64,000 nt of DNA from an uncultured Candidatus Binatia bacterium. Its GTDB lineage: Bacteria; Desulfobacterota; Binatia; UBA9968; JAJDTQ01. The DNA is taken from positions 2,304,001 through 2,368,000 of the forward strand of contig OZ251459.1 in the NCBI GenBank assembly GCA_965242525.1, in the 5' to 3' direction. Below are positions 16,216 to 59,456 of this stretch, one piece after another. Under the pieces are notes generated by a model. That model saw nothing but the letters and a program-made list of their open reading frames with translations, had not been told where the DNA came from and did no database searches. Within the stretch, counting starts at the first letter, position 1, and each line of letters opens with the position of its first letter. A program made the translations under genes and the position numbers.

Positions 16216-16387
16216 GTCCTTCGACTCCGCTTCGCTACGCTCAGGACGAACGGGGAACTCAGGACGAACGGAGACGATCGTTCCGAGTTTTCTGGCACTT
16301 CCGGAATTCGTGTGGGTTGCGACACTCCCCATCCCGTCATTCCCGCGAAAGCCCCACTCTCGTCATTCCCGCGAAAGCGGGAATCCA
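16216..16387. repeat. Repeat cluster: REP family 1 (reverse), ISL3-like end (16294-16327), REP family 2 (one full and one half copy)
   Basis: Direct sequence matches to copies elsewhere in the window. Confidence 0.7.
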
Positions 16388-16424: not shown

Positions 16425-16564
16425 GGAACCTCTGAACAATCGAGACATCCGGGATGGATTCCCGATTCCCTCACCCTGACGCCCCTATCCCCGTTCGTCC
16501 TGAGCGTAGCGAAGCGGAGTCGAAGGACGGCTCATGCCCTCTGTCCCGATTGTTCAGAGGTTCC
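16425..16564. mobile_element. MITE-like unit with 23-bp TIRs
   Basis: GGAACCTCTGAACAATCGAGACA ... TGTCCCGATTGTTCAGAGGTTCC (22/23 inverted match); internal REP family 1; nearly co-linear with the reverse complement of 53325-53458. Confidence 0.75.
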
Positions 16565-20228: not shown

Positions 20229-20369
20229 GGAAACCCTGGACAATTGCCCCGTTCATCCTGAGCGTAGCGCAGCGAAGTCCCCCGTTCATCCTGAGCGTAG
20301 CGTAGCGAAGTCGAAGGACGCGCTTTTTCATAGGAGAAGCACATCGAGCCGGAATTGATCGGAGGTTCC
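20229..20369. mobile_element. MITE-like unit with a CAAA target duplication
   Basis: Imperfect TIRs GGAAACCCTGGACAATT...AATTGATCGGAGGTTCC, flanked on both sides by CAAA; internal tandemly duplicated REP family 1. Confidence 0.65.
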
Positions 20370-31036: not shown

Positions 31037-31230
31037 CGTCCTAAACCAACCAAGTATACTGCCAAACCGATCCTTGAGATCCTATCTTCGAATCGAGAGA
31101 ATCCCGAGCCGAGTCACAGGTGTGTTCCCAAGGCTTGGCACCCGTCGATGGAAGAACCATAACCCCTTGTCGAAGCAGCGTCAAAGCGTGGCGATCTCCA
31201 GGCACCCGGTTGCCGCCGCGAACCGCCGTC

Positions 31231-34200
31231 CTATGCTCCGACCGCCCGCCGGCCGCCGCGGCCCCGGCGCACGTTGACCAAGGCGCGCAACCCCAGGTCC
31301 GCGAGGAAGACGCCCAGAGCCGCGGCCGCCACGGCCCACCAGATCCCCGCGGCTGCGCCTGCGGCCGCGGGGTCGGGGGTGAACAGGCGCTCCACGCCCT
31401 CCGACAGGTCTTCGTCGCGCAGCACTTCTCCGCCGGTCTGCCGGGCGAGCCGTTCCAGCAACTCGGTGTCGGCGTCCATTTCCCGGTACTCCCGGGAGAA
31501 GGGGACGATGAAAGGCACGGTGAGGGCCACGGGGGGCGCGCCGGACGGGCTCGGGGGCTGCTTCACGGTGAGCAGGTTGATGCCCCGGCGGGGGGTGGCG
31601 AAGGTCGTGCGGTAGCGGCCGGGGGCGACCTGGCGGAAGCTCTCCCGTTGCAGGGTCTCGTCGGACCGGGTCAGCAGTCCCTCCAGGTTCAGGTGGTTCA
31701 CCGGCCGCCCCGCGGGCGTGAACAGGTCCACCACCGCGCTCATGACGTCGCCCTCCCTCACGAAGTCGGTGCGGAGGCGGTGGTCGGAGACGTTCCGCAC
31801 CGCGAGCCGGGCCATCTGGGCGGCCCACCGGGGGAACGCCTCCCAACGCACCCAATGGCGCCCCCACCTGCCGGACACGTCCGAGGTGAACGCATGGACC
31901 CGCCCCAGGCCGTAACGCCAGGAGACCAGCAGCGGGTCCTCCCCCGCCAGCAGGTGGAGCTCCGCGCCGGGCTTGGCGTGGGTCAGGACGTAGCCCAGGA
32001 CCTGCGGCAGGGGCTCCGCGGCAAGACCGCGCATGGGTCCCGCGGAACCCGTGGCCGCGGGGGTCACGGTCTCCTCCACCAGGAGGTCCCGGGAGATGAG
32101 CAGCGTCTCGGTGGTGAATATCTGCGGGATGGTCCTCGGGTCCACGGTGGCGTAGCTCCTGCCGCTGCCGCCCTTGGCGAGCCGGGCCATGAAGCGCCGG
32201 TCGGCGTCGCCGCCGATGGACACGGTGGACACGGTGACCCGTTCCCCGGCCATGCGCCGCACCTGCTCCTCCAGCGCCCCCTTCTCGGTGAGCCCGTCCG
32301 ACAGCACCAGCACGTGCTTGATGGCAGCCTCCTTGGCCGAGAGCGCCCGGCCGCCCTCCACCATGGCCTTGAGCAGGTCGGTGCCCCCGTCGGAACTCAG
32401 GCGCGCCACGTCCTCGGCGATGCTCGCGCCGTCTCCCGCGGCCCGGAAGGGGACCACCCACTGCCAGTTGGAATCGAAGGCCAGGATGCCCACTTCGTCG
32501 GTGGGGTTGAGGAGCTCGGCCGACGCCATGGTGGCCGCCTTGGCCAGGTCCAGCTTGGTGGTCCCGGAGGGGCCGCCCCCCATGCTGCCGGACTTGTCCA
32601 CCACGAAGAGCAGCGCCACGTGCGGCATCTCCATGCGCACCGGGGGGCGCATCTCCACCGGCAGCGTCCGTTCCAGCGGCGTCCGGTAGTAGCCGCCGGC
32701 GCCGTAGCTCCGGGTCCCGCCCAACACGATGAGTCCGCCCCCGAGGTCGCGCACGAACCGTTCGACCCGCTCCATCTTCACTTGCGAGAGCCGGTAGGCG
32801 GGCACGTTGTCCAGGACCAACAGGTCGAATCCCGTCAGCTCGGGCAGGGTCAGGTTGGCCCGATCCGGGGTCTTCTCCACCACCTCGTACCCCTGGACCT
32901 GCAACGCTTCGGCCATGAAACGCCGGGGCGCGTCCGCGGCATGGAGGTAGAGGACCCGGGACGGCCCCTCGACGCTCACGATGCCCTGCAGCAGGTTGTT
33001 CTCCGCCAGCACGTCCGCGGCCGCGTCCACCACCAGCTCGTAGGTGTGGGCGCCCCGCTGCTCCACGCTGTCGGCGAAACTCAGGCGGTTGGCGCCGGGG
33101 GCCAGTTCCGTCCGCAGGGAACGGATCACGCGCCCGTCCCGCAGCAGGGTGACGCCCGCGGACGACTCCCGGGCGCTGTTCAAGGCGGCCTCGATCTCGA
33201 AGGTCTCGCCGCTGTCCACCACCGAGGGCACGGAGAACTCGGACAGATAGACCTCGTTCCTCCCCGCGGCAAGGCTCACCGGGTACGACCACACCGCCAC
33301 GCCGTGGGACCGGAGCAGGGGCAGCACCCGCTCCACCGAACCCCGGTTCTCGTTGGCGTCGGACACCAGCAGTATCCGGTTCTCGCGCTCCTCGCTCAAC
33401 TCTCCCAGCGCTCCCTGGAGGGCCGCGCCCAGGTCGGTGGCGTCGCGCTCCGGCGGCGGCGAGAGCCCGCCCGCGGGAAGCTCCCGGGTGGGCGGGAACT
33501 CCCATTGGGGACGGCGCGCGAAGGAGAAGAGGCCCAGGCGCACGTTGGGACCCGTGAGGCCCCGGGCGCGCTCCAGCACGTCCGCCGCCCGGGCCCGGGC
33601 TTCCTCTCCCACGCTGTGGGACAGGTCCACCGCCATCACCACGTCCAGCTCGGGGTCCTCGGCGAGGATGCGCGGGTTGGCCAGGGCCACCAGCAGCAGG
33701 GCCAGGGCGGGCGCCCGCAGCCACAGGGGGTAGAGCGACCCCCGGGCGCGGCACACCATCACGGCCTCGGCGAGCAGGAGGACCAGGGCCAGACCCAGCA
33801 GCGCCGGCCACAGGGGGAGGCGGGCGTCCCCCACCTCCGCCGGGGCCGGCTCCGAGTCCGCGGCCGCGGCGGCCTCCGGGCGGTAGGAGGGGCGGATGCG
33901 CGACTCTTCCTCGCTGAACAGGTTGACCGCGAACTCGCCTTCCCGGCGCTCGCCCCGGAACTGGTAGAAACCCACCTCATGGGTCTCGGCATAGACTCCC
34001 GCGCGCTCCCGGGTGCGGACCGGGCGGCTCGCGCCGGACGGGTTGACGAAGACCAGTCGCTCCTCTTCCACTCCCACGTCGGCCACGAAAGGCAGGCCCG
34101 CGGCCACCTGGCGGGCAGGGAACTCCCGGGCCGTGGGCCGGAACCAGGAGAAGGCGTTGCGCACCAGCAGCGGGAACGACACCCGGAAGGGGAGGTCCGA

Positions 34201-35592
34201 CCGGGTGAGGTCGAAGGCGAACACCAGCGCCTTGAGATCCCCCGACTCCACCGCATGGACCAGCGGTCCCCGCTCGGACCGGGCCAGGGTCACGCCGCTA
34301 TCGGCCACCAGCTCCAGCGCGTCCCGGACGTGGAGTCCGTCCAGCCGCACTCCCGCGGCCAGGGGATGGTCCGCGCCCCCGGACACCCGCGCCGGGCCCG
34401 GGGTGCTCCCGGCCACCCGCAGGGGCAGCCCCGGGGCCACCGTGCGCACCAAAATGAAGTTGCCGCTGGCGAGGGGCGGGGACGGCACCCGGTCCAGTAT
34501 CACCACGTCGTAGGCCGCCACCTGCTCGCTCACCCGGTCCACCGGGATGCGGTCGATGCGGGCCAGGGTCACGTGCGGGAAATACCGCAACAGGCGCTCC
34601 AAGTAGGGGTTGCCCGGGCCTGCGTACAGCACCCGGGTGGGGCGCTCGTCCGGGAAAGCCAGGAACGCGCGGTTGTCGGTGCGCAGGTGGTCGTCGATGG
34701 CCAGGAGCGCGGTGGCGCGCCCGCGCAGGGGTCCGGGGACGCCGTAGATGCGCACCTGCCGGGCGAAGGGGTCCAGGGACAGCAGCGTCCGGCTCACCAC
34801 CCGGTCGGACACCGTGACGATGAGGGGCGCGTGCACCGGCCGCTCGGTGAAGTTCTGCACCACCACCATGGCCTCGTACTCGTCGGCCCCGCCGGGCGCC
34901 CGGCGGAACTGGAAGCCCAGGATGCCCACGTTGTCGGCGCCGCCCCCGACCTGCACCAGGTCGAGGTAGGACGCCCCCCACGGAAGTTCCTCCACGCCCT
35001 CGAAGGCGCCGTCGGTGATGACCGCCACCCGGTTGGCCCCCCGGCGCTTGAGGAACGTGTGGGCCAGCAGCACCGCTTCCTTGACCGGCGCCTCGGCGTC
35101 GGTGGCGGCCAAGCGCTCGGCCGCGGCCCTGAGCTGCCCCCGGTCCCGGGTGAATGGCTGGACCACCCGGGGCTCCGCGGCCGCCCCGACGATCATCATC
35201 CGGTCGTTGGCGTCCAGGGCGTCGATGCGTCGGAGCAGCGCGGCCCGGGCCGCGTCCCAACGGGAGCCCGACTCCCCCGCGGCCTTCATGCTGGCGCTCT
35301 GGTCCACCACCGCCACCACGTCCCGGCCGGCGCTGCCCACTCCCAGGAGCGCGGGGCCGGCCAGGGCGGCCGCCAGGGCGAGGGCGGCCAGGAGTTGCAG
35401 GAGCAGCGGCAGGTTGCGCGGCCAGAGCCGGCCGAGCCGCCGGCCCACGGGCCGTTCCCGCAGCGCCTTCTCCAGCAGGAACAGCGCGGTGACCGGGAAC
35501 CGGGGGCCCCTGGGCCGGAGGCTGTTGAGCAGCAGGATGAGCGGGACCGCTCCCAGCAGGAAGAGGAAGGCCGCGGGAAAGAGCCACAGCAC
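31231..35592 (-). CDS. Multi-VWA membrane protein (BatA-like N-terminus, VWA domains, class-I GATase-like domain)
   Basis: N-terminal LLGAVPLILLL...LLLQLLAALALAAALAGP; MIDAS-like motifs DQSASM, DLSHSV and DKSGSM; ITDG, LSDG; internal and C-terminal TM helices. Confidence 0.85.
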   Translation of the reverse strand: MLWLFPAAFLFLLGAVPLILLLNSLRPRGPRFPVTALFLLEKALRERPVGRRLGRLWPRNLPLLLQLLAALALAAALAGPALLGVGSAGRDVVAVVDQSASMKAAGESGSRWDAARAALLRRIDALDANDRMMIVGAAAEPRVVQPFTRDRGQLRAAAERLAATDAEAPVKEAVLLAHTFLKRRGANRVAVITDGAFEGVEELPWGASYLDLVQVGGGADNVGILGFQFRRAPGGADEYEAMVVVQNFTERPVHAPLIVTVSDRVVSRTLLSLDPFARQVRIYGVPGPLRGRATALLAIDDHLRTDNRAFLAFPDERPTRVLYAGPGNPYLERLLRYFPHVTLARIDRIPVDRVSEQVAAYDVVILDRVPSPPLASGNFILVRTVAPGLPLRVAGSTPGPARVSGGADHPLAAGVRLDGLHVRDALELVADSGVTLARSERGPLVHAVESGDLKALVFAFDLTRSDLPFRVSFPLLVRNAFSWFRPTAREFPARQVAAGLPFVADVGVEEERLVFVNPSGASRPVRTRERAGVYAETHEVGFYQFRGERREGEFAVNLFSEEESRIRPSYRPEAAAAADSEPAPAEVGDARLPLWPALLGLALVLLLAEAVMVCRARGSLYPLWLRAPALALLLVALANPRILAEDPELDVVMAVDLSHSVGEEARARAADVLERARGLTGPNVRLGLFSFARRPQWEFPPTRELPAGGLSPPPERDATDLGAALQGALGELSEERENRILLVSDANENRGSVERVLPLLRSHGVAVWSYPVSLAAGRNEVYLSEFSVPSVVDSGETFEIEAALNSARESSAGVTLLRDGRVIRSLRTELAPGANRLSFADSVEQRGAHTYELVVDAAADVLAENNLLQGIVSVEGPSRVLYLHAADAPRRFMAEALQVQGYEVVEKTPDRANLTLPELTGFDLLVLDNVPAYRLSQVKMERVERFVRDLGGGLIVLGGTRSYGAGGYYRTPLERTLPVEMRPPVRMEMPHVALLFVVDKSGSMGGGPSGTTKLDLAKAATMASAELLNPTDEVGILAFDSNWQWVVPFRAAGDGASIAEDVARLSSDGGTDLLKAMVEGGRALSAKEAAIKHVLVLSDGLTEKGALEEQVRRMAGERVTVSTVSIGGDADRRFMARLAKGGSGRSYATVDPRTIPQIFTTETLLISRDLLVEETVTPAATGSAGPMRGLAAEPLPQVLGYVLTHAKPGAELHLLAGEDPLLVSWRYGLGRVHAFTSDVSGRWGRHWVRWEAFPRWAAQMARLAVRNVSDHRLRTDFVREGDVMSAVVDLFTPAGRPVNHLNLEGLLTRSDETLQRESFRQVAPGRYRTTFATPRRGINLLTVKQPPSPSGAPPVALTVPFIVPFSREYREMDADTELLERLARQTGGEVLRDEDLSEGVERLFTPDPAAAGAAAGIWWAVAAAALGVFLADLGLRALVNVRRGRGGRRAVGA

Positions 35593-42222: not shown

Positions 42223-43206
42223 TCAACTCCAGGAGCGTTTGCCGGGGCCGAACACGTGGCAGGCGGCGGCGTGGCCGCTGGGGGAGAACTCCAGCTCCGG
42301 CTCCACCTCGGAGCAGACCGGCTCCCGGAACGGACAGCGGGGGTGGAAGTTGCACCCGGAAGGGGGGTTCACCGGGCTCGGCACGTCCCCTTCCAGCACC
42401 ATGCGGTCCTTCTTGGGGTTGGGGTCGGGCATGGGCACCGCGGACAGCAGGGCGCGGGTGTAGGGATGGCGGGAGTCGCTGTAGATGGCCTCGCTGGGGG
42501 CGATCTCCACCACCTTGCCCAGGTACATGATGGCCACCCGGTGGCTCACGTGCTCCACCACCCGCAGGTCGTGGGAGATGAAGAAGTAGGTGAGGCTCAT
42601 GCTCTCCTGCAGCTCCTGCAGGAGGTTGATGATCTGGGCCTGGATGGACACGTCCAGGGACGACACGGGCTCGTCCGCCACGATGAACTTGGGCGACACC
42701 GCCAGGGCCCGGGCGATGCCGATGCGCTGGCGCTGGCCGCCGCTGAACTCGTGGGGGTAGCGGTCGTAGTGGTCCTCCCTGAGACCCACCTGCCGGAGCA
42801 GTCCCATCACCTGCTCCCTGCGCTTGCCGCCGGACGCCATGCGATGGATCTTGAGGCCCTCGCCGATGATCTCGCCGACCCTCATGCGCGGGTTCAGCGA
42901 GGCGTAGGGATCCTGGAATATGATCTGCATGCGCCGGCGCAGGTCGCGCATCTCGGCGTTGGAGATCCGCATGATGTCCTTGTCCTCGAACAGGATCTCG
43001 CCGTCGGTGGGCTCGATCAGCCGGAGTATGGTCCGGCCCAGGGTCGATTTGCCGCACCCGGACTCGCCCACCACCCCCAGGGTCTCCCCTTCCTCCACGG
43101 TGAGGCTTACGCCGTCCACCGCCTTCACGTCGCCCTTGCGGCGGGACAACAGCCCTTCCTCCACCGGGAAGTACTTCTTGAGGTTCCTGATTTCGAGCAG
43201 GCTCAC
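42223..43206 (-). CDS. Oligo/dipeptide ABC ATPase (OppF/DppF-like)
   Basis: [43 protein letters not shown]. Confidence 0.92.
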   Translation of the reverse strand: MSLLEIRNLKKYFPVEEGLLSRRKGDVKAVDGVSLTVEEGETLGVVGESGCGKSTLGRTILRLIEPTDGEILFEDKDIMRISNAEMRDLRRRMQIIFQDPYASLNPRMRVGEIIGEGLKIHRMASGGKRREQVMGLLRQVGLREDHYDRYPHEFSGGQRQRIGIARALAVSPKFIVADEPVSSLDVSIQAQIINLLQELQESMSLTYFFISHDLRVVEHVSHRVAIMYLGKVVEIAPSEAIYSDSRHPYTRALLSAVPMPDPNPKKDRMVLEGDVPSPVNPPSGCNFHPRCPFREPVCSEVEPELEFSPSGHAAACHVFGPGKRSWS

Positions 43207-43210
43207 GGGT

Positions 43211-44173
43211 TCAGTTCGTCCTGTAGCAGGAGACCCATTGATGGCGCCCCTTCTGCTCCAGCGGGGGCTCGTGCCCGGCGCAGATCCCCGACGCCTTGAA
43301 GCAGCGGTCCCGGAAGCGGCACCCGCTGGGCAGTTCCAGGGGACTGGGGACCACCCCCGGTATGGCGTCGAGCCGGCGCCGGCTGGCGCCGCTGGGCAGC
43401 GAGTTCAGCAGGCCGATGGTGTAGGGGTGCAGGGGTTTGCCGAATATGGCCTCGGGCCGTGCGCGCTCCACCATCCGGCCGGCGTACATGATGGCCACCT
43501 CGTCGGCCTGCTCGGCCACCACCCCGAGGTCGTGGGTAATGAGCAGCAGGGCCATGCCGAGCTGGTCCTGGAGCTCGCCCATCAACTCCAGGATCTGGGC
43601 CTGTATGGTCACGTCCAGGGCGGTGGTGGGCTCGTCGGCGATGAGCAGGCTCGGGTTGCACGACAGCGCCATGGCGATCATGACGCGCTGGCGCATGCCG
43701 CCGCTCATCTGGTGCGGGTAGTCGTTGACCCGGAGCCCGGGATCGGCGATCTTCACCAGCCGGAGCATCTCCACCGCCTTGTCGCGGGCCTCCCGCCGGG
43801 TGACCTTCTGGTGGAGGCGGATGGCCTCCATGATCTGGTCCCCGACCGTGAACACCGGGTTCAGCGAGGTCATGGGCTCCTGGAAGACCATGGAGATCTC
43901 GTTGCCGCGGATCTGCCGCATCTCCTCGTCCCGCAGCTTGAGCAGGTCCCGCCCGCGATAGAGGATCTCCCCCGCGGACACCTTCCCCGGAGGGGACGGG
44001 ATCAGCCGCATGATGGAGAGCGCGGTCACGCTCTTGCCGCAGCCCGACTCGCCCACCAGCCCCAGGGTCTTGCCCGCTTCGATGGTGAGGTCCAGGCCGT
44101 CCACCGCCGGCAACTCGCCGTCGGTGGTCACGAAGGATGTGTGGAGGTCCTTGAGTTCGAGCAGTGTCGCCAT
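43211..44173 (-). CDS. Oligo/dipeptide ABC ATPase (OppD/DppD-like)
   Basis: [45 protein letters not shown]. Confidence 0.92.
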
Positions 44174-44384
44174 GTGGCCGCCGCTCCCTGCCGGCCGGGA
44201 GGAACCCGCAAGCGCGCACTCTACCAAAAATCACCGGGGCTGCAAACGTCCATCGGATGCGCGTCCGGGGCCGGGACCGTCCTCGGCCCGGGAGCAGGAC
44301 AATCCCACGCCCGGGGATAGCACCTGAAGATCTCCATAAATCAGGGGAACCGGAAGGTGGAAGGCGCCAGAAAAACGGGAATGC

Positions 44385-44576
44385 TCAGCCCGAATCCTGC
44401 GAAAGGCGACGATCCGAGAAGAGCCCCTTGATGACCGCAAGAACCAATCCGATAACGGCCACTGCCGTACTGCCGACAACAGCGATCAGAACTTTTCTTC
44501 CTCGGTGGACACGTCAAAGCCCAGGGAATCAGAAAAGACCCTCAAATATCTCTTCAGGTGGCTTCTTGGCCGACAC
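44385..44576 (-). pseudogene. Frameshifted/deleted small membrane protein downstream of the DUF4065 gene (probable toxin partner)
   Basis: Pieces lie in different frames: MSAKKPPEEIFE / SDSLGFDVSTEEE / KVLIAVVGSTAVAVIGLVLAVIKGLFSDRRLSQDSG*. Confidence 0.55.
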
Positions 44577-45078
44577 GGTCCCTTTCCATCCTGATCATTC
44601 CTCCAAAGTACTCTTGCATCGTCCCCCGCGGGATAACAAGCCCGATGGGCAGGACTTGACGGAGAAAATCCACCGAGGTGTCCTCTTCCCCTAACGCTTT
44701 GGTAACGGTGTCGTACCAAGGGGAACCTTTTTGATGAGCCATTGCTGACAACCGTATCGTACTCAAGGGACGGTACCCCTTCCAGATCATGTCTATGAAG
44801 TCGTGAGTCTCTCCATCGGAAACGACCGGACTTCCGGCCATGACTCGAGAAATATCCTCCCCTGCATGACCTGCCAACTTATAGTAGAGGGACGGGAAAA
44901 CAGGTCCCCATGTCCATGCTTCAAGAGCTTCCTCGACCAGAGGCTTCCCGTCTTCAAATCCCAAAAACCATCCATGCGCGAAATAGACGAGTTTGTGAAG
45001 TCTCACAATACCCACTTTCTCTTCGTCACGGCTTGCCAAACCAAGGAAACTATGCGCCACCGCAATCGCTGAAGGCAT
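44554..45078 (-). CDS. Panacea domain (DUF4065/GepA/SocA-like) antitoxin
   Basis: AIAVAHSFL, LHKLVYFAHGW, EALEAWTWGPVFPSLY, LSAMAHQKGSPW; low GC. Confidence 0.88.
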   Translation of the reverse strand: MPSAIAVAHSFLGLASRDEEKVGIVRLHKLVYFAHGWFLGFEDGKPLVEEALEAWTWGPVFPSLYYKLAGHAGEDISRVMAGSPVVSDGETHDFIDMIWKGYRPLSTIRLSAMAHQKGSPWYDTVTKALGEEDTSVDFLRQVLPIGLVIPRGTMQEYFGGMIRMERDRVGQEAT

Positions 45079-45164
45079 AAAGCGCTCCGTTGGTCGTGAA
45101 GGATCGTTGAACATGGAGAAAACCCATGGGGCCTTTACCTACCATGGACGGAAAAGTCAAACCG

Positions 45165-45379
45165 TTGCCCTCGTCCATGGCGGAACGGAACCGCGAGTCC
45201 CGTTCCAGGTCGATCCGCACCGAGTCCCCGGCGCACCGGTCCAGGACGGTTTCCACCAGCGTCGTCTTCCCCACCTGCCGCGCCCCGTCCAGCAGGAGCA
45301 CCGGCTTGTGGGGCGCGTCGTCGTCGATGAACCGCCTGAGCTCCCGCTCCTGGCGGCGCGGCACGTACAGGTTTGCCAT
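45165..45379 (-). pseudogene. Truncated AAA_14-type ATPase (N-terminus only)
   Basis: MANLYVPRR...VLLLDGARQVGKTTLV...IDLE, then breaks into AT-rich DNA before any Walker B. Confidence 0.7.
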
Positions 45380-45429
45380 ATTCCATACCTCGACGGGGTA
45401 TAGAAAGCCCAATTCCCTGCCGATCCCAA

Positions 45430-45798
45430 GGAAAGCCTGAACGGTCCCGGAGGAAGAGGCGTCCTTCGACTTCGCTTCGCTACGCTCAGGACGAACGGGT
45501 ACAGGAAGGTCACGGGGAGTAATCCCCCATCCGCGGCTCTATTGTTGGCGCTTCCGGAATTCGTGTGGGTTGCGACACTCTCCACGCACGCGATGATGTC
45601 GCTTCCTCCCATTCCGACCATGCCGTCCCCGGTTTGGCGTCGCAGACGCCCCACCCCGCATTCCCGCAGCTACCCACACCCGTCATTCCCGCGAAAGCGG
45701 GAATCCATCCCCGTTCGTCCTGAGCGTAGCGAAGCGAAGTCGAAGGACGCGCTCTTCCTTCGGAATTGTTCAGAGGTTCCCTGATGTTCAGGGTTTCC
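45430..45798. mobile_element. Composite MITE-like unit (two inverted REP-1 copies, an ISL3-like end, REP-2)
   Basis: Outer TIRs GGAAAGCCTGAAC / GTTCAGGGTTTCC with CAA on both flanks; an additional TIR copy ends at 45780. Confidence 0.6.
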
Positions 45799-45854: not shown

Positions 45855-46973
45855 CTACAGCAGTTCGACGTTGGCCCGGGGCACGGTCACGGTGCGGCCG
45901 TCCGGCAGGCGCGCGCGCAGGACGCGGGTGCGGGCACCGGTCTCGATGGGCTCGGGCTCGGGGGGCAGCGCCACCACTTCCGCGGCGACGCCGAAGTAGG
46001 GCGCCCGGACGATGCGGACGGGCGCACCGACTCGCAGGCCCGGGGCCGGAGACGGTCCCCGGGACGCGGGCGCCTCGCTCTCGTCCCGGGCGACGATGAT
46101 CTCGGGGCGGACCGCGCCCGCGCGCACCTGGGTGGCGCCGTTGATGGAGGCGGCGCGGCCGTCGAGGCTTCGGAGCAGGGAATGGGTGCGTTCCGCCAGG
46201 GGCAGCCAGCCGAAGCCCTCGGTGACGATGAGGGTCATGGGGACGTCCTCGTGGCCGGTGAGGGCCACGCCCAGGTCGTAACCGAGGTAGCCCCGGAGGG
46301 TGTGGTCGTCCACCGACCCCACCACCATCCCCACCGCGCCGGCCGCGGCCGCCTGCTGCAACGCCGTGAGGCTCGGACAGGTGCCGCCCACCAGCACCTT
46401 GCCGGCCGCGTCCGCGGGTATCGTCTTCGCCCCCACCACGGTCCTGGGGCCGCCGTCCAGTACCCGTATGACGCCGCAGCGTTCGCCGCCGATGCCGAAG
46501 ATCCCCTGGACGAACGCCCCGCGGCTCTCCACCGTGACGGACTTGTCCCGCTCGACCTCCGCCACCGTGCCGGGCAGGTACGCCCGCAGCTCGATGGCGT
46601 GGGCCGCCAGACGAAGCCCCACGTGCCCGGTGCGCGGGGTGACGAACTCCACCACGCCGCTCGCGGGCGCGTGGAACCGCGACCGGAACAGCCCGAACAG
46701 TCCCACGTGCTCGCACAGAAGGCCGCCTTCCGCCACCGGGTCGCCTTCCGCAGCCTTGAGGCCCTTGACCGCCTCGAAGGGTTCGATGCCGAGGCTCTCC
46801 GGGATGCGCAGGATGCGCAGCTCGCCCGGCAGCTCGGCACGGGCCACCACGGTGTCCGGCACCACCGTGTCGCCGACCTCGCAGAGTATCCGCCCGGGCG
46901 CCGGAAGCTCGCGGGTCTTCCGCACCACCGTGTGGTCCTGCACCCGGAGTCCGGGCGTGAACGCCGGCGTCAT
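45855..46973 (-). CDS. Hypothetical protein with barrel-sandwich-hybrid repeats and a C-terminal KOW-like motif (GlmL-associated)
   Basis: GRILCEVGDTVVPDTVVA; EGDPVAEG...APASGVV; VQGIFGIGGE; TEGFG; LRVGAPVRIVRAPYFG...VTVPRANVE; ATGA overlap with the glmL-like gene. Confidence 0.8.
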   Translation of the reverse strand: MTPAFTPGLRVQDHTVVRKTRELPAPGRILCEVGDTVVPDTVVARAELPGELRILRIPESLGIEPFEAVKGLKAAEGDPVAEGGLLCEHVGLFGLFRSRFHAPASGVVEFVTPRTGHVGLRLAAHAIELRAYLPGTVAEVERDKSVTVESRGAFVQGIFGIGGERCGVIRVLDGGPRTVVGAKTIPADAAGKVLVGGTCPSLTALQQAAAAGAVGMVVGSVDDHTLRGYLGYDLGVALTGHEDVPMTLIVTEGFGWLPLAERTHSLLRSLDGRAASINGATQVRAGAVRPEIIVARDESEAPASRGPSPAPGLRVGAPVRIVRAPYFGVAAEVVALPPEPEPIETGARTRVLRARLPDGRTVTVPRANVELL

Positions 46974-48808
46974 GGCTCCACCAGCCCGAGCCTGGCCATC
47001 ACCGACCGGCGCTCCCCGGCCTGCTCGCGGGCGGACGCCGCGGGCCGGAGCGGGCGGTTGCGGCCGTCGAGGATCACGCCGCAAAGGCCGGCGGTGACGT
47101 CCCGCTCCAGGGGGACGCCGGCGCCGGCCCCCACGTCCACGTCCCGGGCCGCAGGCCGGACGGCGACCCGGACCGGGGCGCCGGGATCCAGCGGGATGCG
47201 GCCGACGACGCCGACGGTGACGGTCCCGGCCCGGGCCCCGTCCACCGAGACCTCGGCCAGCGCCGTCCCCGCAGCCCGTTTCCGCGAGAACACCGGGGCC
47301 GCGGCATGGGCCACGTCCACCAGGCAGTCGTGCAGGAAGACCTCCCGGGCCGCGTCGGGATGGACGGAGGCGAAGACTCCCAGGTGGGGCATCATGAAGA
47401 CCGAGTCCACCGCGATCCGGGTGAAGCCTTGCAACTCGAAACCCTCCAGTATCATGAGCGCGGCGCTCATGCGGTCCGGGGCGTGGCTCAGGACGCCGCC
47501 GGAGCCGATGACCAGGTCCAGGCGCATCATGTCCACCAAGTCCGACCGGCCGGCGGTCTGGGAGAAGATGTCGGCGATGCCGCGCTGCTGCTGCACGCCG
47601 CTCAGGCCCACGGCCAGGGATCGGTGGTGGACCAGGGCCAGGCGCAGCGCCTCGCGGCACACCGCCTGCTCCAGCCACAGGTCCTCCAGGGTCTGGGGGA
47701 TCGAGGTGGGCCGGATCATCTTGTTGCGCAGCCGGTCCCGGACCTCTGCGGGCTCCATGTCGCAGGGCAGCCAGCCGCGGATGGACTCCACCCCGGCCTC
47801 GATGAGCACGTTGGCCACCGAGTAGCTCATGCCCAGGTTGGCGCTGACCGTGCGGTTGAACACCGGCTCGCCTTCCCGGTCGTCGAACACGCTGAAGACG
47901 TCGGTGGTGGCGCCGCCGATATCGACGCACAAGACCGACCGGCCGGTGTCCCCGGCGTAGCCGCGCACCATGTCGCCCACGGCCGCGGGGGTCGGCATGA
48001 CCGGGGCCGGGGTCCATCGCAGCAGCTTGTCGTACCCCGGCGAGTGGCTCATGACGTGGGTGAGGAAGAGGTCGTGGATGGCTTCCCGGGCCGGGGCCAA
48101 GTGCTCCGCCTCCAGTGTCGGGCGCACGTTGTCCACCACCGTCACCCGGGCGGTGTTGTCGAGCAGGCGCCGCACGTCGTCCGCGACGCGGCCGTTGCCG
48201 GCGTAGATCACCGGCAGCTTGAGGGAGTCGCCGAAGCGGGGACGCGGCGCCGCCGCGGCCAGGGTCTCCGCCATCTCCACCACGTGCTCCTGGGACCCTC
48301 CGTCCACGCCGCCGGTGAGCAGCACCATGTCCGGCCTCAGGTGGCGCAGCCGCTGGATGCGTTCGTGGTCCTCGCGCCCGTCGTCCGCGGAGATGGCGTC
48401 CATGACGATGGCGCCGGCGCTCAAGGCGGCCCGTTCCGCGGACTCCGCGCTCATCCGGCGCACCACCCCGGCCACGGTCATCTGGAGCCCGCCGCCGGCC
48501 GAACTGGTGGACAGGTAGAGGTCGATGCCGCGGGCCGGGTCGCCGCCGGACTCGATGAACGGAGGCTCGCCGCCCCTCGCTCCGTCCCGCTGGAGGATGG
48601 CGCGGCCGCTCACTTCCTCCAACTCGGTGAAGGCGTTCAGGGCGCCGACGGTCACGTCGGCCACGGGCTGCTCCACGGTGGTGGGGGCCTCGCCCCGGCG
48701 GGTCTGGCGCCACCCGGCATCGGTCTTCTCGAACAGCAGCGCCTTGGTGGTGGTGGAGCCGCAATCGGTGACCAGCACGGTCCGGAGCGCTGTGGGATCG
48801 GTCTTCAT
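46970..48808 (-). CDS. Glutamate mutase L (GlmL/MutL-reactivase family) ASKHA ATPase
   Basis: TDCGSTTTK, SSAGGGL, GGVDGG, IYAGN, MPTPAAV, VDIGGATTDVFS, RTVSANLGMSYS, IGSGGVLSHAP. Confidence 0.85.
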   Translation of the reverse strand: MKTDPTALRTVLVTDCGSTTTKALLFEKTDAGWRQTRRGEAPTTVEQPVADVTVGALNAFTELEEVSGRAILQRDGARGGEPPFIESGGDPARGIDLYLSTSSAGGGLQMTVAGVVRRMSAESAERAALSAGAIVMDAISADDGREDHERIQRLRHLRPDMVLLTGGVDGGSQEHVVEMAETLAAAAPRPRFGDSLKLPVIYAGNGRVADDVRRLLDNTARVTVVDNVRPTLEAEHLAPAREAIHDLFLTHVMSHSPGYDKLLRWTPAPVMPTPAAVGDMVRGYAGDTGRSVLCVDIGGATTDVFSVFDDREGEPVFNRTVSANLGMSYSVANVLIEAGVESIRGWLPCDMEPAEVRDRLRNKMIRPTSIPQTLEDLWLEQAVCREALRLALVHHRSLAVGLSGVQQQRGIADIFSQTAGRSDLVDMMRLDLVIGSGGVLSHAPDRMSAALMILEGFELQGFTRIAVDSVFMMPHLGVFASVHPDAAREVFLHDCLVDVAHAAAPVFSRKRAAGTALAEVSVDGARAGTVTVGVVGRIPLDPGAPVRVAVRPAARDVDVGAGAGVPLERDVTAGLCGVILDGRNRPLRPAASAREQAGERRSVMARLGLVEP

Positions 48809-48992
48809 GGAACGAGACCGGCCATAAGGCCTCTTGACATCATCGGACGATCCGGGTTAGCTTCCGGCAGACACGGGGTTCCGTACATCGAAACCCTGAT
48901 GGCGACGCGACAGAACGAGGACGATACAATGACTTGCCTTGGTCCGGGGTCAGGCCCCATCGTATAGCGCCATCGGATCGCCTCCGCTTCGG

Positions 48993-49514
48993 TCAAGGGC
49001 CCGGCACACGCCTGAAAACCCTTCCGGGAAACTGACGGTCTTTCAGGATACGCACCGTGCCGGTTGCGTTTTCGAGCGTGTCCTTCTGGGACTTCTCGAA
49101 TAGTTGCCAGAGGGCGAGTTTTCTGCCAGAGGGCCAGCCTCTCACGAACTCCAGGTCGAAACTCTCCGCAAACGCGTGAAGCTCCGCTTCATGATGGAAG
49201 TACGACAGGACGATCTCTTCTTCCCGTTCGTCCAGTAGCTCCATTACCTCGATCACTTGGTCGTAGGTGAGATCGTCAGCGGTCGAACGCACCACATGCG
49301 GCGTGTACGACTCGTCCTGCTCGATCTTTTCCCGAATCGAGTCGTTGCGGTCCTTCAACGTTTCCAGGTCGCGGACAGCCTTGCTCGCATGATGATAGAC
49401 CGCGTTGACCAGCTTCCGCCGTCGTCTGCCGCGTGATTCCAGGAAAATGTACGCGCTCAGGCACAGGGCTGCAAACGACACGAACAACGGGACGAATTCC
49501 AGGAACCGCGACAT
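48993..49514 (-). CDS. Hypothetical protein with a single N-terminal TM anchor
   Basis: 173-aa ORF, GGAG RBS, FVPLFVSFAALCLSAYIFL followed by RGRRRRK; lower GC than its neighbours. Confidence 0.7.
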   Translation of the reverse strand: MSRFLEFVPLFVSFAALCLSAYIFLESRGRRRRKLVNAVYHHASKAVRDLETLKDRNDSIREKIEQDESYTPHVVRSTADDLTYDQVIEVMELLDEREEEIVLSYFHHEAELHAFAESFDLEFVRGWPSGRKLALWQLFEKSQKDTLENATGTVRILKDRQFPGRVFRRVPGP

Positions 49515-49559
49515 GCCGTTATGACTCCTTGCGCCATCCTTCCACGAGAGGACCTGCCG

Positions 49560-50270
49560 CTACAACACCAGGCGCGCCAGCGCGCCGTACCAGTCGATGA
49601 GCAGGAACTGCACCCGTTCCACCAGCAGCGCGGTGCGCGCCATCACCGTGGAGCCGAAGAAGGCGCCGAAGCACACCATCAGGAGCCAGCGCCCGGAAAG
49701 GGACAGGCCGTTGGCGGCCCGGTTCTCGTGCCGGAAGGAGAAGAAGAAGTAGTACATGACCGCCAGCAGGGTGAAGACGAAGAACGTGTTCTCCAGGCTG
49801 CCGCCCAGGGCCAGGGCGCCGTCCTCGAACACCGCCAGCGGCTTGAAGCTGCTGGCCACCTGGGGCAGGATCTGGTTGAAGAACCCCTTGAAGGCGAGCC
49901 CTCCGCTCATGCCCAGTGAGAAGCCGATGACCAGCTTGGCCAGCCACGCGTGCCTCCGGGAGTACAGGAAGTAGTAGAACAGGCCGAAGGCCATGGGCAG
50001 GGCGTAGAGCAGCAGCCGGGGGTCGTACTCGTGGGACACGCTGCCGTCGGGCCAGGTCACGATGTCCAGGCCGAGCATGGGCGACAGCACCTTGGGCCAC
50101 AGGAAGTTCTTGATGCTGAGCACGAGGCCGAAGCCGGCCGCGATGCCGATGAACAGGTGCTCGAACAGCCGGAAGAACGGGTTCTCCCTGATGAGAAAGC
50201 TGAAGATGGCCAGGGTGCCGACGCCGCCCACGAGCACCGTGGCCGCGTGCCAGTAGTCCGCGCTCGTCAT
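49560..50270 (-). CDS. Hypothetical multi-pass membrane protein
   Basis: TLAIFSFLIRENPFFRLFEHLFIG...YYFFFS...GRWLLMVCFGAFFGSTVMAR; about six TM helices; ATGA overlap. Confidence 0.8.
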   Translation of the reverse strand: MTSADYWHAATVLVGGVGTLAIFSFLIRENPFFRLFEHLFIGIAAGFGLVLSIKNFLWPKVLSPMLGLDIVTWPDGSVSHEYDPRLLLYALPMAFGLFYYFLYSRRHAWLAKLVIGFSLGMSGGLAFKGFFNQILPQVASSFKPLAVFEDGALALGGSLENTFFVFTLLAVMYYFFFSFRHENRAANGLSLSGRWLLMVCFGAFFGSTVMARTALLVERVQFLLIDWYGALARLVL

Positions 50271-51142
50271 GGCCGGGACCTCGGCTTCCGCCGGCGCAGC
50301 AAGCCCGCGGCGTTGCCCAGGACGATGAAGGCGATCACCACGAGCTGGGCCACGCCCAGGCCCGTGTTCAACGTCAGCGATTCGTCCACCGGCCGCTCGG
50401 GGTAGCGCCGGCGCATGAGCTCGGAGTACCACGCCGCCCCGGCCAGGCCGCCGAGCAACCCCTGGATCTGGCCCGAGTCGAGGTAGATGAACGCCTCGGG
50501 GATGGTGATGGAGGTGCAGCCGTGGCCGAAGGCCGGCGTATAGTCCTTGCTGGAGAAGTACTGGACGTAGTTGTCGAAGACCCCCACCAGGCCGGTGAAC
50601 TCGGCCAGGAAGGAGATCTGGCGGAGGGTGCGCAGTCCGCGGAACGCGGGGAGCTCGGAGATGCGGTTGCCGCGGGCGTCCTTCTCGAACAGTTCGGCCA
50701 GGTTCTCCGACTTGGGGATCGCCTGGATGAGGACGCCGGCGCCCGGCCGGTAACCGAGGTTGATCCAGTCGCGGCCGTACTCCCAGGTCTCGCCGGGATG
50801 CTCGCGTTCGAGCTGCCGCGCCACCTCTTCGGGGATGGACTTGAGGAAGGGCTCGGCCAGGTAATAGAGGGAGAACAGGATCACCGGGACGCGCTTGCGC
50901 ATCAGGTGCTCCACCACCACCCGGGCCTGGGGCTGGTTCTCACCCTTGGTGCCGGGGCCGAAGTCCATGGCCACGAACGCGTACCGCCCCGGCTCGGCCC
51001 GGATGCCGTCCACCAGGTCGAAGAACCTGCCGGCGTCGTCCATGCGCGTGGGCTGCACCGTGTAGCCCGCGATGATGGGCGCGCTCAGCGCGAGGAAGAC
51101 CAGCAGGTAGATCCAGCGGCGGTCCAGCCGCGCGAGGTCCAT
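50267..51142 (-). CDS. Hypothetical protein with two terminal TM anchors and a large extracytoplasmic domain
   Basis: LDRRWIYLLVFLAL, DFGPGTKGE, EYGRDWINLGYRPG, YLDSGQIQGLLGGLAGAAWY, IAFIVLGN. Confidence 0.8.
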   Translation of the reverse strand: MDLARLDRRWIYLLVFLALSAPIIAGYTVQPTRMDDAGRFFDLVDGIRAEPGRYAFVAMDFGPGTKGENQPQARVVVEHLMRKRVPVILFSLYYLAEPFLKSIPEEVARQLEREHPGETWEYGRDWINLGYRPGAGVLIQAIPKSENLAELFEKDARGNRISELPAFRGLRTLRQISFLAEFTGLVGVFDNYVQYFSSKDYTPAFGHGCTSITIPEAFIYLDSGQIQGLLGGLAGAAWYSELMRRRYPERPVDESLTLNTGLGVAQLVVIAFIVLGNAAGLLRRRKPRSRP

Positions 51143-51143
51143 C

Positions 51144-52196
51144 CTACCGCTCCTCCCGGTCGAAGGACTCCGATTCGATGGAGAACCACATGCGGAACGC
51201 CATGACCAGCCCGGCCACGCCGGCCCCCAGGGTGATGGCCCGGAACGCCGCGGAGTTGGGCACCTCCAGGAGCCACAGCCTCACGTCCGGCAACCCGGAC
51301 CAGATCCACACGCCGAAGGGGATCTGCCCGAGCATGACCACCACCGCCGCGGCCATCATCAGCGAGGACTCCGCGGAGCGCACCCGGAAGGCGCGATAGG
51401 CCGCGGCCGCGATGTAGAACCCCAGGAGCGAGAACATGGCCGACCCCAGGGCCACGAACAGCCCGTCGAAGAGCAGGCCATAGACCCGCTTCGCGGTGGA
51501 GTGCTCGTACTCGTGGTTGCGCAGGTTGCGCCAGGAGTCGGCGAGACCCCGCAGCGCCCGCGCCGCGGCGGTGTTGGCGGCCGCGTCCACCGGCCCTCCG
51601 TCCGCGGTGGCCAGCTCCTCCACCGCGGCCCGCACCGCGGCCACCCCCTCGCCGGCTTCCGCCAGGTATCCCTGTGCGAGGCGTTGGTCGATGCTCCCGG
51701 CCCCGAAGCGGCCGAGGTCGAAACCGGCCATCTCGCCCTCGACCCGGGCCAGCAGCCGGGCCGCGGCCTGCCGGAGCGCGCGGTTGCGTTCCGCCGCGGG
51801 CAGGACCCCGTCCGCCTGCTCCTCGTGGTCCGCCCGGATGCGCTCCGCGAAGTCCCCCAGCCGGGAGACGGCCGCCACGTCCTCCGCCACCCGGCTGGTC
51901 CGGGACCAGTCGTGGAAGGTGACCGCCATCATCACCGCCAGGCCGGAGAGGAGCGCCGCGCTGTAGCCCCAGTCCCTGCGCCGGAAGACGATCTTCGAGC
52001 CGTGCAGCAAGAGCAGGTTGACGAGGCCGAGGCCCACGGCCATGGCGCCGACGGTGATGAAGCCGTTGGAGATGGGGTCGTGGTAGGCGTCGATCTTCAC
52101 CCCGAACAGGGCGTCCGGCAGCACGAACTCCAGGAAGAAGTAGATGCCGCCCAGGAAGGTGACCAGCTTGATGAGGCGCGTGCGGAAGTTCACCAT
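51144..52196 (-). CDS. Hypothetical multi-pass membrane protein with a helical insert
   Basis: Three N-terminal TM helices, an Ala-rich insert, then MFSLLGFYIAAAAYRAFRVRS...MLGQIP...PNSAAFRAITLG. Confidence 0.8.
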   Translation of the reverse strand: MVNFRTRLIKLVTFLGGIYFFLEFVLPDALFGVKIDAYHDPISNGFITVGAMAVGLGLVNLLLLHGSKIVFRRRDWGYSAALLSGLAVMMAVTFHDWSRTSRVAEDVAAVSRLGDFAERIRADHEEQADGVLPAAERNRALRQAAARLLARVEGEMAGFDLGRFGAGSIDQRLAQGYLAEAGEGVAAVRAAVEELATADGGPVDAAANTAAARALRGLADSWRNLRNHEYEHSTAKRVYGLLFDGLFVALGSAMFSLLGFYIAAAAYRAFRVRSAESSLMMAAAVVVMLGQIPFGVWIWSGLPDVRLWLLEVPNSAAFRAITLGAGVAGLVMAFRMWFSIESESFDREER

Positions 52197-52999
52197 CCGA
52201 ACCCCCAGCCGACCCCCATCAGGGCGTCGAGGTTGGGGAGGCCGAGCTCCGGCCACACCGAGTTCAGGGTCGCGACCCCGACCCCGGCCACGATCAGCAG
52301 CACCAGGAAGAGCTTGGCCCGGTCCTGTCCGTGGAGGCTGCCGAGCTGGACCGGCTCCCGGGTCAGGTAGGCCGAGGCGGCGAACAGCTCTTCGCCGATG
52401 AGCGTGTAGTCACAGGAGGCGATGAAGAACGCCACCTGCTCCGGGCTCACCGAGGCCCCCACCTGCATGGCGCCCGCCTGCTGTCCCGCCTCGGCCAGGA
52501 TCAGCGACTCCGCGGCGAAGTGGCCGAAGAGGAAGGCCCCGGCCACCCGTTCCCGCTGCACCAGGCCCGCGTACCCCGCGGCAAAGGCGAACTGCTCCTC
52601 CGAAAGGAAGATGACGTTCCGCGGGTCGAACCGGTCCGACCGGCCCTCGGCCCGGTAGGCGTCCCGGAGCACGTCCTCCGCGATGGCCATGACCTCGGGG
52701 TCGTTCTGGGGCAGCAGCAGCCGGGACTTGTAGCGCGCGGCCTTGCGGGCCACGTAGTAGAGCACCCCCAGGCACGCGTACAGCACCGGGCTCACCCGGG
52801 TGATGCCGGTGGTGAAGGAGAGGGGCCGTCCCATCTCCGCGGACCGCCCCGCGGCCTCGTCGATGGCGTCCACCCCGGCCAGGCGCCGCACGTGGAGGTC
52901 CCTCCGCCGCCGGGCCGTGCGGATGTAGTACAGCACCGGCCCGATCATCAGCGCGAGGACCACCACCACCGCGGGGGTCGCTTCGTCGAACCCGCCCAT
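52190..52999 (-). CDS. DUF6754-like membrane protein
   Basis: VRRLAGVDAIDEAAGRSAEMGRP, FLSEEQFAFAAG, FAAESLILAEAG, DYTLIGEELFAASAYL, GSLHGQD (family recognised from memory). Confidence 0.75.
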   Translation of the reverse strand: MGGFDEATPAVVVVLALMIGPVLYYIRTARRRRDLHVRRLAGVDAIDEAAGRSAEMGRPLSFTTGITRVSPVLYACLGVLYYVARKAARYKSRLLLPQNDPEVMAIAEDVLRDAYRAEGRSDRFDPRNVIFLSEEQFAFAAGYAGLVQRERVAGAFLFGHFAAESLILAEAGQQAGAMQVGASVSPEQVAFFIASCDYTLIGEELFAASAYLTREPVQLGSLHGQDRAKLFLVLLIVAGVGVATLNSVWPELGLPNLDALMGVGWGFGW

Positions 53000-53286
53000 C
53001 AGCCCTTCCCGCCCTCCCCGGCCAACTCTTCGATGCGCCGGATGAGCCGCTCCACGTTGTCCCGGGACTGGAGGAACGCGGGCAACTCCCGCGCCCTGGC
53101 CCCGAACAGCGGCAGCATCACGGGAAGGCTCATGACCGCGGCCGCATGGAACAGCGAGGTGAGCGGCTTGTGGGTTTCGAGGAACAGGATGGCCGGTACC
53201 GCCATCCTGCGGGCGTGCACCGCGGAAGCGAGCTGCTCGATGAGGGCGTCCGGGGCGGCGCCGGCGCCGTGCCCAGGCAGTTCCAT
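52999..53286 (-). CDS. Small hypothetical protein, first gene of the operon
   Basis: GGAGG RBS; LIEQLA...MAVPAILFLETHKPL...SRDNVERLIRRIEE; TGATG overlap with the next gene. Confidence 0.75.
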   Translation of the reverse strand: MELPGHGAGAAPDALIEQLASAVHARRMAVPAILFLETHKPLTSLFHAAAVMSLPVMLPLFGARARELPAFLQSRDNVERLIRRIEELAGEGGKG

Positions 53287-53324: not shown

Positions 53325-53458
53325 GGAAACTCGGAACGATCGGGACAGGAGGCATGAGCGCGTCCTTCGACTTCGCTTCGCTACGCTCAGGACGAACGGG
53401 GACGGGATTGTCAGGGTGAGGGAATCCATCCGGGACGTCCCGATCGTTCAGGGGTTCC
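53325..53458. mobile_element. MITE-like unit (reverse copy of 16425-16564)
   Basis: TIRs GGAAACTCGGAACGATCGGGAC / GTCCCGATCGTTCAGGGGTTCC; internal REP family 1. Confidence 0.72.
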
Positions 53459-59321: not shown

Positions 59322-59456
59322 CGTCCTTCGACTCCGCTTCGCTACGCTCAGGACGAACGGGGATAGGGACGAACCGGGGATGAGAGGGTCAGGGGCAAGC
59401 GCCTGAACTCGGCCATTCCGGGGGTAACGACGAACCGGGGATGGGAGGGTCAGGGA
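59322..59456. repeat. REP family 1 (reverse) plus a 27-bp direct repeat
   Basis: CGTCCTTCGACTCCGCTTCGCTACGCTCAGGACGAACGG, then GACGAACCGGGGATG(A/G)GAGGGTCAGGG twice, between convergent genes. Confidence 0.7.

Follow-up and report, generated by a model that had tools for sequence, protein, structure and literature searches.

A conserved operon joining a long-form GlmL-family ATPase to DUF6754 and other membrane proteins very probably encodes an ATPase-coupled inner-membrane machine

The 64,000-nucleotide stretch of an uncultured Candidatus Binatia genome analyzed here (the window; all coordinates are positions within it) carries at 45855-53286 an operon whose seven conserved genes very probably encode an ATP-driven machine of the inner membrane. 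Its products are an ATPase of the actin/Hsp70/sugar kinase (ASKHA) superfamily (g7), a three-domain partner (g8), a DUF6754 protein (g2), three further membrane proteins (g3 to g5), and a small protein (g1). This set of parts is without counterpart in any known system. We favor the reading of a solute importer that does not use an ATP-binding cassette (ABC), with confidence a little short of even, and the best reading of the evidence is that the machine is unrelated to B12-dependent mutases. If true, it would represent a new way in which ATP drives work at the inner membrane of bacteria, and the name "glutamate mutase L" would be wrong for many database entries and could misdirect metabolic reconstructions toward glutamate fermentation. 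An earlier note on this DNA had proposed a candidate undescribed membrane machine, and we found no published description of the system in a literature search outside which lay most subscription journals and all supplements. The present analysis adds a predicted interface between the ATPase and DUF6754, with residues specific to the clade, as well as an assignment of folds and the observation that cassettes are duplicated.

Eight minus-strand open reading frames (ORFs) fill the operon stretch in the order g1-g2-g3-g4-g5-g6-g7-g8 (Table 1), seven of them conserved core genes and one, g6, an orphan. At the nucleotide level the junctions bear out the translational coupling described earlier: g1 and g2 share a TGATG overlap, g2 and g3 overlap, g3 and g4 are separated by a 1-nucleotide gap, and g4/g5 and g7/g8 are joined by ATGA overlaps, with g6 flanked by 45 and 184 nucleotides. 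The orphan is regarded as an insertion because it was matched at only 4 of 80 DUF6754 loci (the best 80 of 136), because its GC content at third codon positions (0.73) departs from that of the seven core genes (0.92 to 0.98), and because g5 and g7 lie at most 27 bases apart in 17 of the 21 close relatives that have both in view. ORF calls and locus comparison together confirm the description of seven co-oriented genes plus an inserted orphan. The genome has only one copy of each core gene. No sigma-70-like promoter was found, and terminator-like sites occurred only at chance level; none of the eight proteins matched a PADLOC anti-phage model (library of 2023) at an E value of 0.01, and no plasmid match was found for DUF6754.

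The unit is conserved well beyond this genome. The order g2-g3-g4-g5 is kept in 74 to 77 of the 80 loci, where g3 was detected 77 times, g4 75, g5 74, g1 53, g7 28, and g8 27; g7 and g8 lie within the same fetched stretch at about one third of the loci, and nearly all of the rest have them elsewhere in the genome. Full operons in the order g1-g7-g8-g2-g3-g4-g5 occur in distant lineages (L163, L168, L243, L245, L246, and L248), and two more loci (L241 and L247) show that order with an extra gene inserted. Among 50 DUF6754 genomes, drawn from the 80 loci with most close relatives and near-duplicates left out, 49 encode PF13941 (the MutL/GlmL family, to which g7 belongs) and 48 encode g8, while GlmE over its cut-off and the lysine/ornithine aminomutase family PF09043 were each found once. 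An even sample of 271 genomes from Planctomycetota, the phylum of the Planctomycetia record G045, gave a similar picture: DUF6754 is present in 77 of them, so that the system is not rare, PF13941 in 76, and g8 in 74, and 72 genomes have all three; PF13941 accompanies DUF6754 in 73 of those 77 genomes and g8 does so in 72, whereas 191 genomes have neither DUF6754 nor PF13941, and GlmE passes its cut-off in 3. Gene-neighborhood and phylogenetic profiling, the check that the earlier note had proposed, therefore finds that the core genes travel together, whereas glutamate mutase does not accompany them, and these distributions indicate that g7, g8, and the cassette g2-g5 are inherited together. 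Tree-distance correlations between subunits (0.65 to 0.89 across 34 genomes) are given little weight because they have no housekeeping control.

The nearest named records are mostly labeled Candidatus Binatia, and the system is also found among largely uncultured groups that include Armatimonadota, WOR-3, and Bdellovibrionota; a g4 profile gathered 4,230 clusters at 50% identity with E values up to 1e-10. Within the window's own class DUF6754 is patchy, being present in 10 of 79 genomes and two of 18 families. Trees of g2, g5, g7, and g8, read without a root, place Dadabacteria and Bdellovibrionota records among the nearest neighbors of the closest relative, with the same three records ranking first in each tree; transfer of the whole unit between lineages would fit this pattern.

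ASKHA proteins are defined by phosphate-1, phosphate-2, and adenosine motifs. All three appear intact in g7, as DCGSTTTK (residues 15-22), DIGGATTD (296-303), and GSGG (435-438), and each motif position is 98 to 100% conserved among 111 aligned relatives, so that the earlier motif reading stands and g7 is, by its sequence, an ATPase of this superfamily. It scores 404.4 bits against PF13941 (Pfam gathering cut-off 27), and its relatives carry the source name "glutamate mutase L." From this one might conclude that g7 is an ordinary GlmL or Or-4 helper of a B12-dependent mutase encoded elsewhere, with the membrane genes incidental to it; MutL is termed a reactivating chaperone in a passage of PMC4682846, which cites a diol dehydratase paper for that. 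The evidence largely refutes this explanation, to which we assign only a very slight chance. Against the curated profiles g7 falls below every cut-off: 218 of 475 for NF040745 (GlmL), 209.8 of 600 for NF040744 (Or-4), and 181.1 of 204.05 for TIGR01319. It shares with GlmL/MutL and Or-4 the phosphate and adenosine motifs, an inserted alpha/beta domain (about residues 105-250), and a glycine-rich pocket, but at 612 residues it belongs to a clade of roughly 600-residue proteins, as opposed to about 460 for the mutase-linked forms, and it has in addition a clade-specific segment at about 400-420 and a C-terminal extension at about 500-612. In a quick tree of 51 PF13941 rows, 11 mutase-type rows separate from the other 40 with Shimodaira-Hasegawa-like approximate likelihood ratio test support of 100; the tree carries long-branch warnings, and two apparently short rows inside the long clade were cut by contig ends. 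The tree of PF13941 members called for by the earlier note thus indicates that g7 belongs to a clade of its own, distinct from the mutase-linked forms.

Gene content argues in the same direction. The earlier note had recognized no mutase or cobalamin-binding gene in the window, and this holds genome-wide for the relevant enzymes: no match to GlmE or to PF09043 was found in this genome (98.96% complete), and although the PF09043 control set had no positive, the same search gave a match in genome G042. Three B12-binding matches in the genome fall in methionine synthase, in a radical-SAM protein, and, below threshold, in IMP dehydrogenase. Short-form PF13941 genes are found beside GlmS, GlmE, or OraE, whereas g7 travels with g8 and DUF6754, and two genomes with both forms (G560 and G042) hold the short one beside the mutase and the long one beside g8. 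Among 301 genomes of the window's phylum, 25 others have PF13941 over the cut-off and none of these has DUF6754; their full-length matches lie in open frames of 451 to 521 residues, and a GlmS-like gene stands alongside the short form at 9 of 10 loci fetched from this phylum. In genome G049, a glutamate mutase-like gene in which GlmS and GlmE are fused (L115:1453-3390) has no GlmL adjoining it.

Several further searches around g7 were negative. The inserted domain was considered as a GlmS-like B12-binding domain and rejected (profile comparison with 9 GlmS sequences, E value 0.51), as was an amphipathic membrane anchor in the 400-420 segment, which is absent from the twelve best windows. A sequence search of the PDB found no relative of g2, g4, or g7 at an E value of 0.001, and a search of the ESM Atlas returned same-family clusters only. 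Rfam models, tried for a cobalamin or other riboswitch, gave no match at all in the window or at 20 ATPase loci, and nothing except one tRNA at 18 DUF6754 loci.

A predicted structural connection between the ATPase and the membrane cassette comes from one complex model comprising g7 (residues 8-608), g8 (150-372), and, as partner, the soluble domain of g2 (38-213). The complex scored 0.62, compared with 0.00 for the best of three controls and 0.00 with g7 replaced; at least 91% of contacts are common to the runs, and the predicted local distance difference test (pLDDT) of the partner is at least 84. Among solved complexes 116 of 157 reach the score mark, against 2 of 215 mismatched pairs, counts that hold only roughly here because trimmed chains and custom alignments were used, unlike in the calibration. 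Since a sequence search found no solved relative of g7 or g2, the score is less likely to reflect structures memorized by the predictor. All confident contacts of the g2 domain are with g7. On the g7 side, most of the predicted contact is carried by the inserted alpha/beta domain (115-120, 141-142, 166-175, 229, and 232), complemented by segment 403-417; on the g2 side it involves 48-58, 86-91, and 193-199 and is centered on the invariant E55, which in the model sits beside R229 and H175 within the glycine-rich pocket of g7. The interface of g2 is more conserved than its domain as a whole (0.80 versus 0.69, p 0.012). R229, H175, and R409 are kept in 37, 35, and 33 of 38 long forms, respectively, and in none of 11 short forms, while the pocket glycines are kept in mutase-linked GlmL as well. 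No confident contact was listed between g8 (150-372) and DUF6754, which is no evidence against binding. The prediction thus provides one confident inter-subunit interface, of the kind that the earlier note had asked for, and supports, without showing, binding of g7 to the cytoplasmic DUF6754 domain; the predicted contact of E55 with R229 makes this central claim testable with two soluble proteins.

The fold predicted for g2 (pLDDT 94) consists of a transmembrane helix, a Rossmann-like domain (38-214), and a second transmembrane helix. Structural matches of the soluble domain include the sirtuin Sir2Af2 (Z 12.2, root mean square deviation [rmsd] 3.5 over 145 aligned residues), phosphoglycerate kinase (Z 10.9), and transhydrogenase domain III (Z 9.7); a wide search gave tied rows. 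By its best match the domain appears closest to DHS-like NAD/FAD-binding folds, a shared fold that shows no function. Sirtuins carry a conserved catalytic histidine, and no histidine reaches 80% among 146 DUF6754 rows; E55, G57, and D197, at the predicted docking site, are invariant. Basic residues in g2 average 5.0 per sequence after the first helix and 0.9 before it, while g4, a subunit of similar plan, has them at both ends. Some relatives of g2 have signal-like N termini (judged by eye) with FN3 domains, others a C-terminal PKD domain, and in one relative of g4 the N terminus is extended by a long acidic arm that weakly matches a zinc ribbon. From the bias in basic residues and the nature of these outer and inner extensions, the g2 domain is most likely cytoplasmic and that of g4 most likely extracytoplasmic. 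Of 21 profile pairs, g2-g4 is the best (E value 7e-4 to 8e-4; next pair 0.012), which hints weakly at shared ancestry. Charged residues are conserved in or beside the hydrophobic segments of g3 and g5, the conserved polar positions of g5 being N30, E37, H38, T208, and R212, and g3 has a variable helical insert (about 97-225) that probably faces outward. No Pfam family recurs among members of g3, g4, or g5 (38 and 41 members for g3 and g5), no cysteine reaches 80% in g3, g4, g5, or g8, and none of the eight proteins matches a P-loop ABC ATPase family. Appendages of 600 to 1,000 residues on relatives of DUF6754 or g4 were observed at L241:7397-11212, L242:6495-9302, L244:6560-9148, and L160:3523-6354; none has a Pfam match except for the PKD domain in L244 and the weak zinc ribbon in L160.

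One pointer to transport comes from duplication. Eight loci have two complete four-gene cassettes, in tandem or, in L248, two genes apart, and seven of these eight genomes have one PF13941 match, which suggests that a pair of paralogous cassettes can share a single g7/g8 module. The subunit most diverged between cassettes is g4; its same-position copies are 51 and 57% identical across genomes, compared with 40% between first and second copies, so that the duplication is old. A single energizer shared by paralogous membrane units whose outer subunit diverges is the pattern of ABC and energy-coupling factor (ECF) importers. We prefer the importer reading because of this shared energizer, the outward subunit diverging most, the pairing of an inward with an outward subunit, and the charged residues in the membrane. 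In such a machine g7 would grip the cytoplasmic DUF6754 domain through its inserted alpha/beta domain; g2 would face inward and its distant relative g4 outward, recognizing a ligand outside; and g3 and g5 would form the membrane core. Closing and opening of the ASKHA lobes with ATP might then be passed as motion through DUF6754 to the g3/g5 core, which would move the ligand. The module differs from ABC and ECF systems in that its ATPase is ASKHA-type instead of P-loop, and neither family was matched. More tentatively still, the system could represent an undescribed class of primary active transporter in which an actin/Hsp70-fold ATPase replaces an ABC, P-type, or rotary ATPase; its four-subunit membrane unit would pair inward with outward domains, and interchangeable cassettes would share one ATPase module, with GlmL and Or-4 as a side branch that keeps the docking pocket for B12 enzymes.

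A number of observations weigh against an importer or against the coupled machine as a whole. The genes g7 and g8 lie beyond the fetched stretch at about two thirds of DUF6754 loci, and the co-occurrence figures overstate certainty, since the genomes are related and the counts not independent. The docking calibration is loosely applicable, as noted above, and conservation at the g7 interface does not exceed that elsewhere in g7 (p 0.20). The similarity of g2 to g4 is weak (probability 27%), and paralogy of g3 and g5 was not accepted (E value 0.02 to 0.04). No subunit matches any transporter family. Nothing hints at a substrate: flanking genes vary, no riboswitch was found, and a peptide-binding protein follows the operon at only 2 of 75 loci outside this lineage (non-Binatia). 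Finally, the large variable outer appendages on g2 would suit a role in the envelope equally well. Of the earlier proposal of a membrane complex driven by an ASKHA ATPase, the conserved unit and the predicted docking of the ATPase on DUF6754 thus hold up, and three of the four refuting conditions named in the note failed to refute it; the transporter role is a candidate one, so that the proposal is supported in part.

Those appendages lead to an explanation that we consider unlikely, but the least so of the alternatives to an importer, namely, that the operon encodes an envelope scaffold or motor platform, in which an ASKHA protein works like MreB, FtsA, or PilM and docks on a platform in the inner membrane; the outer domains of that platform would touch the wall, S-layer, or outer membrane and position synthesis, export, or surface movement. 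In PilM-PilN, MreB-MreCD/RodZ, and FtsA an actin-fold protein docks on a protein of the inner membrane at its cytoplasmic part, and the predicted docking of g7 would follow the PilM-PilN and MreB-RodZ pattern. The range of DUF6754 outer appendages, from none to about 1,000 residues (FN3, PKD, or helical), the acidic arm of one g4, and the long helical inserts of g3 in some lineages would all make sense in such a structure. On the other hand, g2 in this genome and its close relatives have no appendage, matches to MreB and FtsA are weak and below threshold, g7 is of another ASKHA family and would dock through its inserted domain, and no wall-synthesis, pilin, secretin, or motility gene, pilus genes among them, recurs beside 58 loci (flanking ORFs judged by eye from their N termini, with a subset scanned).

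For the partner g8, three domains are predicted (pLDDT 92): a barrel-sandwich hybrid (50-123), a swivelling beta/beta/alpha domain (152-300), and a KOW/SH3 barrel (307-372). We see a small chance that the system acts as a transmembrane sensor or reactivase-like switch, in which g4 senses an outside cue and g7/g8, laid out as a split reactivase, are released or remodel a client, for example an RNA- or ribosome-bound factor reached through the KOW domain. The alpha subunit of the diol/glycerol dehydratase reactivase comprises ATPase, linker, swivelling, and insert domains, according to PMC7674605. The Hsp70-like ATPase and swivelling domain of DdrA/GdrA (1nbw) would correspond to g7 and g8 here, and the glycine-rich pocket of g7 is shared with mutase-linked GlmL. 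However, the Foldseek match of g8 to 1nbw_A is weak (E value 0.038), 1nbw is absent from the 50 best rows of both VIA searches with g8, no dehydratase or reactivase beta subunit recurs at these loci, and the predicted partner is a membrane protein. As for an RNA-related client, the best Foldseek match of g8 is Thermotoga NusG (E value 5e-6), with a low TM-score and an rmsd of 14 and resting on separate small barrels; a PDB sequence search likewise returned a single NusG row (E value 0.002). Two polytopic subunits are not obviously needed by a sensor, and no regulator recurs nearby. The split of g7 and g8 has a fused counterpart in four loci (L159, L234, L235, and L240), where a divergent ATPase is joined to a g8-like part. 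These belong to a divergent second pair of PF13941 and g8-like proteins (L159:7304-10075 and L234-L240) that lies away from the membrane cassette; nothing in it matches the KOW part of g8, and of the two residues R229 and H175 only the former is kept.

Marginally less probable than a switch is a membrane-bound, ATP-dependent enzyme complex, in which g7 would activate a substrate in the manner of the A-type ASKHA subunits of hydantoinase/oxoprolinase, g8 and the nucleotide-binding-like DUF6754 would finish the reaction, and the membrane part would carry or export the product. Weak matches to Hydantoinase_A and Hydant_A_N point this way, as do the DHS-like fold of the DUF6754 domain and the many invariant polar residues of g2 and g8. 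The predicted interface accounts for several of the invariant g2 residues, however, and no pathway enzyme recurs nearby. The swivelling domain of g8 resembles RraA (Z 9.5, rmsd 3.7, 129 aligned) and enzyme I (Z 9.3), but a phosphohistidine carrier was rejected, as no histidine reaches 80% in 152-300 and position 241 is aspartate in 72% of 116 rows; a lipoyl or biotin carrier was rejected for want of a conserved lysine in the lipoyl-like domain. DUF6754 has no conserved histidine either, and its relationship to ETF-alpha by sequence was rejected (profile E value 0.33, 25 sequences).

The barrel-sandwich domain of g8 resembles NqrA (Z 8.0) and RnfC (Z 7.9) over about 65 residues, and a weak RnfC_N match occurs in 80 of 116 g8 members. 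Rnf and Nqr also have small polytopic subunits, as here, possibly in opposite topology. These complexes carry cysteine ligands for Fe-S centers in a small membrane pair and a soluble subunit, whereas no cysteine is conserved in g3, g4, g5, or g8, and an ATPase stands in place of flavin and Fe-S subunits.

The small protein g1 has a conserved core, PAILFLE-x-HKPL, and adjoins DUF6754 in some lineages and the ATPase in others; it may serve as an adaptor. A small membrane protein lies upstream of g1 at 25 loci, mostly from Armatimonadota (e.g., L044:8851-9576), and is possibly a lineage-specific eighth subunit; a scan of three of its members gave no Pfam match. Two genomes, G400 and G600, have DUF6754 cassettes (L259 and L260) and no PF13941 or g8 match anywhere in the genome; g4 matches there in two pieces and g1 follows g5, which could reflect decay, a variant, or incomplete assembly.

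Table 1. Genes of the operon stretch and copies of the 38-nucleotide repeat, as positions in the window
Feature	Position	Strand	Length (aa)	Remarks
g1	52999..53286	-	95	Small protein; no family
g2, DUF6754	52190..52999	-	269	Family match, E value 3e-84
g3, polytopic membrane protein	51144..52196	-	350	Six hydrophobic segments; no family
g4, transmembrane helix / probably extracytoplasmic domain / transmembrane helix	50267..51142	-	291	Candidate specificity subunit
g5, polytopic membrane protein	49560..50270	-	236	About 5-6 hydrophobic segments; no family
g6, inserted orphan	48993..49514	-	173	Outside the system; 57% GC
g7, long-form PF13941 ASKHA ATPase	46970..48808	-	612	PF13941, E value 8e-121
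g8, ATPase partner, three-domain protein	45855..46973	-	372	Predicted fold
38-nt repeat copy	45711..45748	+		Genome-wide repeat; one of inverted pair bracketing operon
38-nt repeat copy	53362..53399	-		Upstream of g1; candidate end of inversion
38-nt repeat copy	1086-1123
38-nt repeat copy	16216-16253
38-nt repeat copy	16491-16528
38-nt repeat copy	20282-20319
38-nt repeat copy	45461-45498
38-nt repeat copy	59323-59360

The earlier note had drawn attention to peptide ABC genes on both sides of the operon. They are indeed present, with yejABEF divergent from the operon on the opposite strand and dppD/F about 1.6 kb downstream past a toxin-antitoxin remnant, and among 22 close relatives yejA flanks the operon in 21 and dppD in 20; in 20 of the 22, yejA follows g8 on the same strand at a distance of 81 to 879 bases. 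Given their rarity at loci outside this lineage and the inversion of the operon relative to its flanks, the suggested link to peptide uptake is weak and looks mostly like lineage synteny, although in L248 the two cassettes have a dppD/F pair between them. Compared with most close relatives, the operon of this genome and that at L005 are in inverted orientation. In this genome it is bracketed by an inverted pair of a 38-nucleotide repeat. The repeat is present 8 times in the window, against 0 in 100 shuffles, and contig C1 carries 577 copies at up to 3 mismatches; an inversion mediated by this repeat is possible.

Between g8 and dppD, at 44554-45412, lie a truncated fragment of an AAA_14 ATPase and a SocA/Panacea-type antitoxin gene (186 residues, 52% GC); only 1 of 22 relatives had a match to the antitoxin. 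The dppD/dppF-like ABC ATPase pair beyond them (42223-44227) has no adjoining permease or binding-protein gene and is followed by greA. Farther away, at 25910-35592, the window contains two very long minus-strand ORFs of 1708 and 1453 residues.

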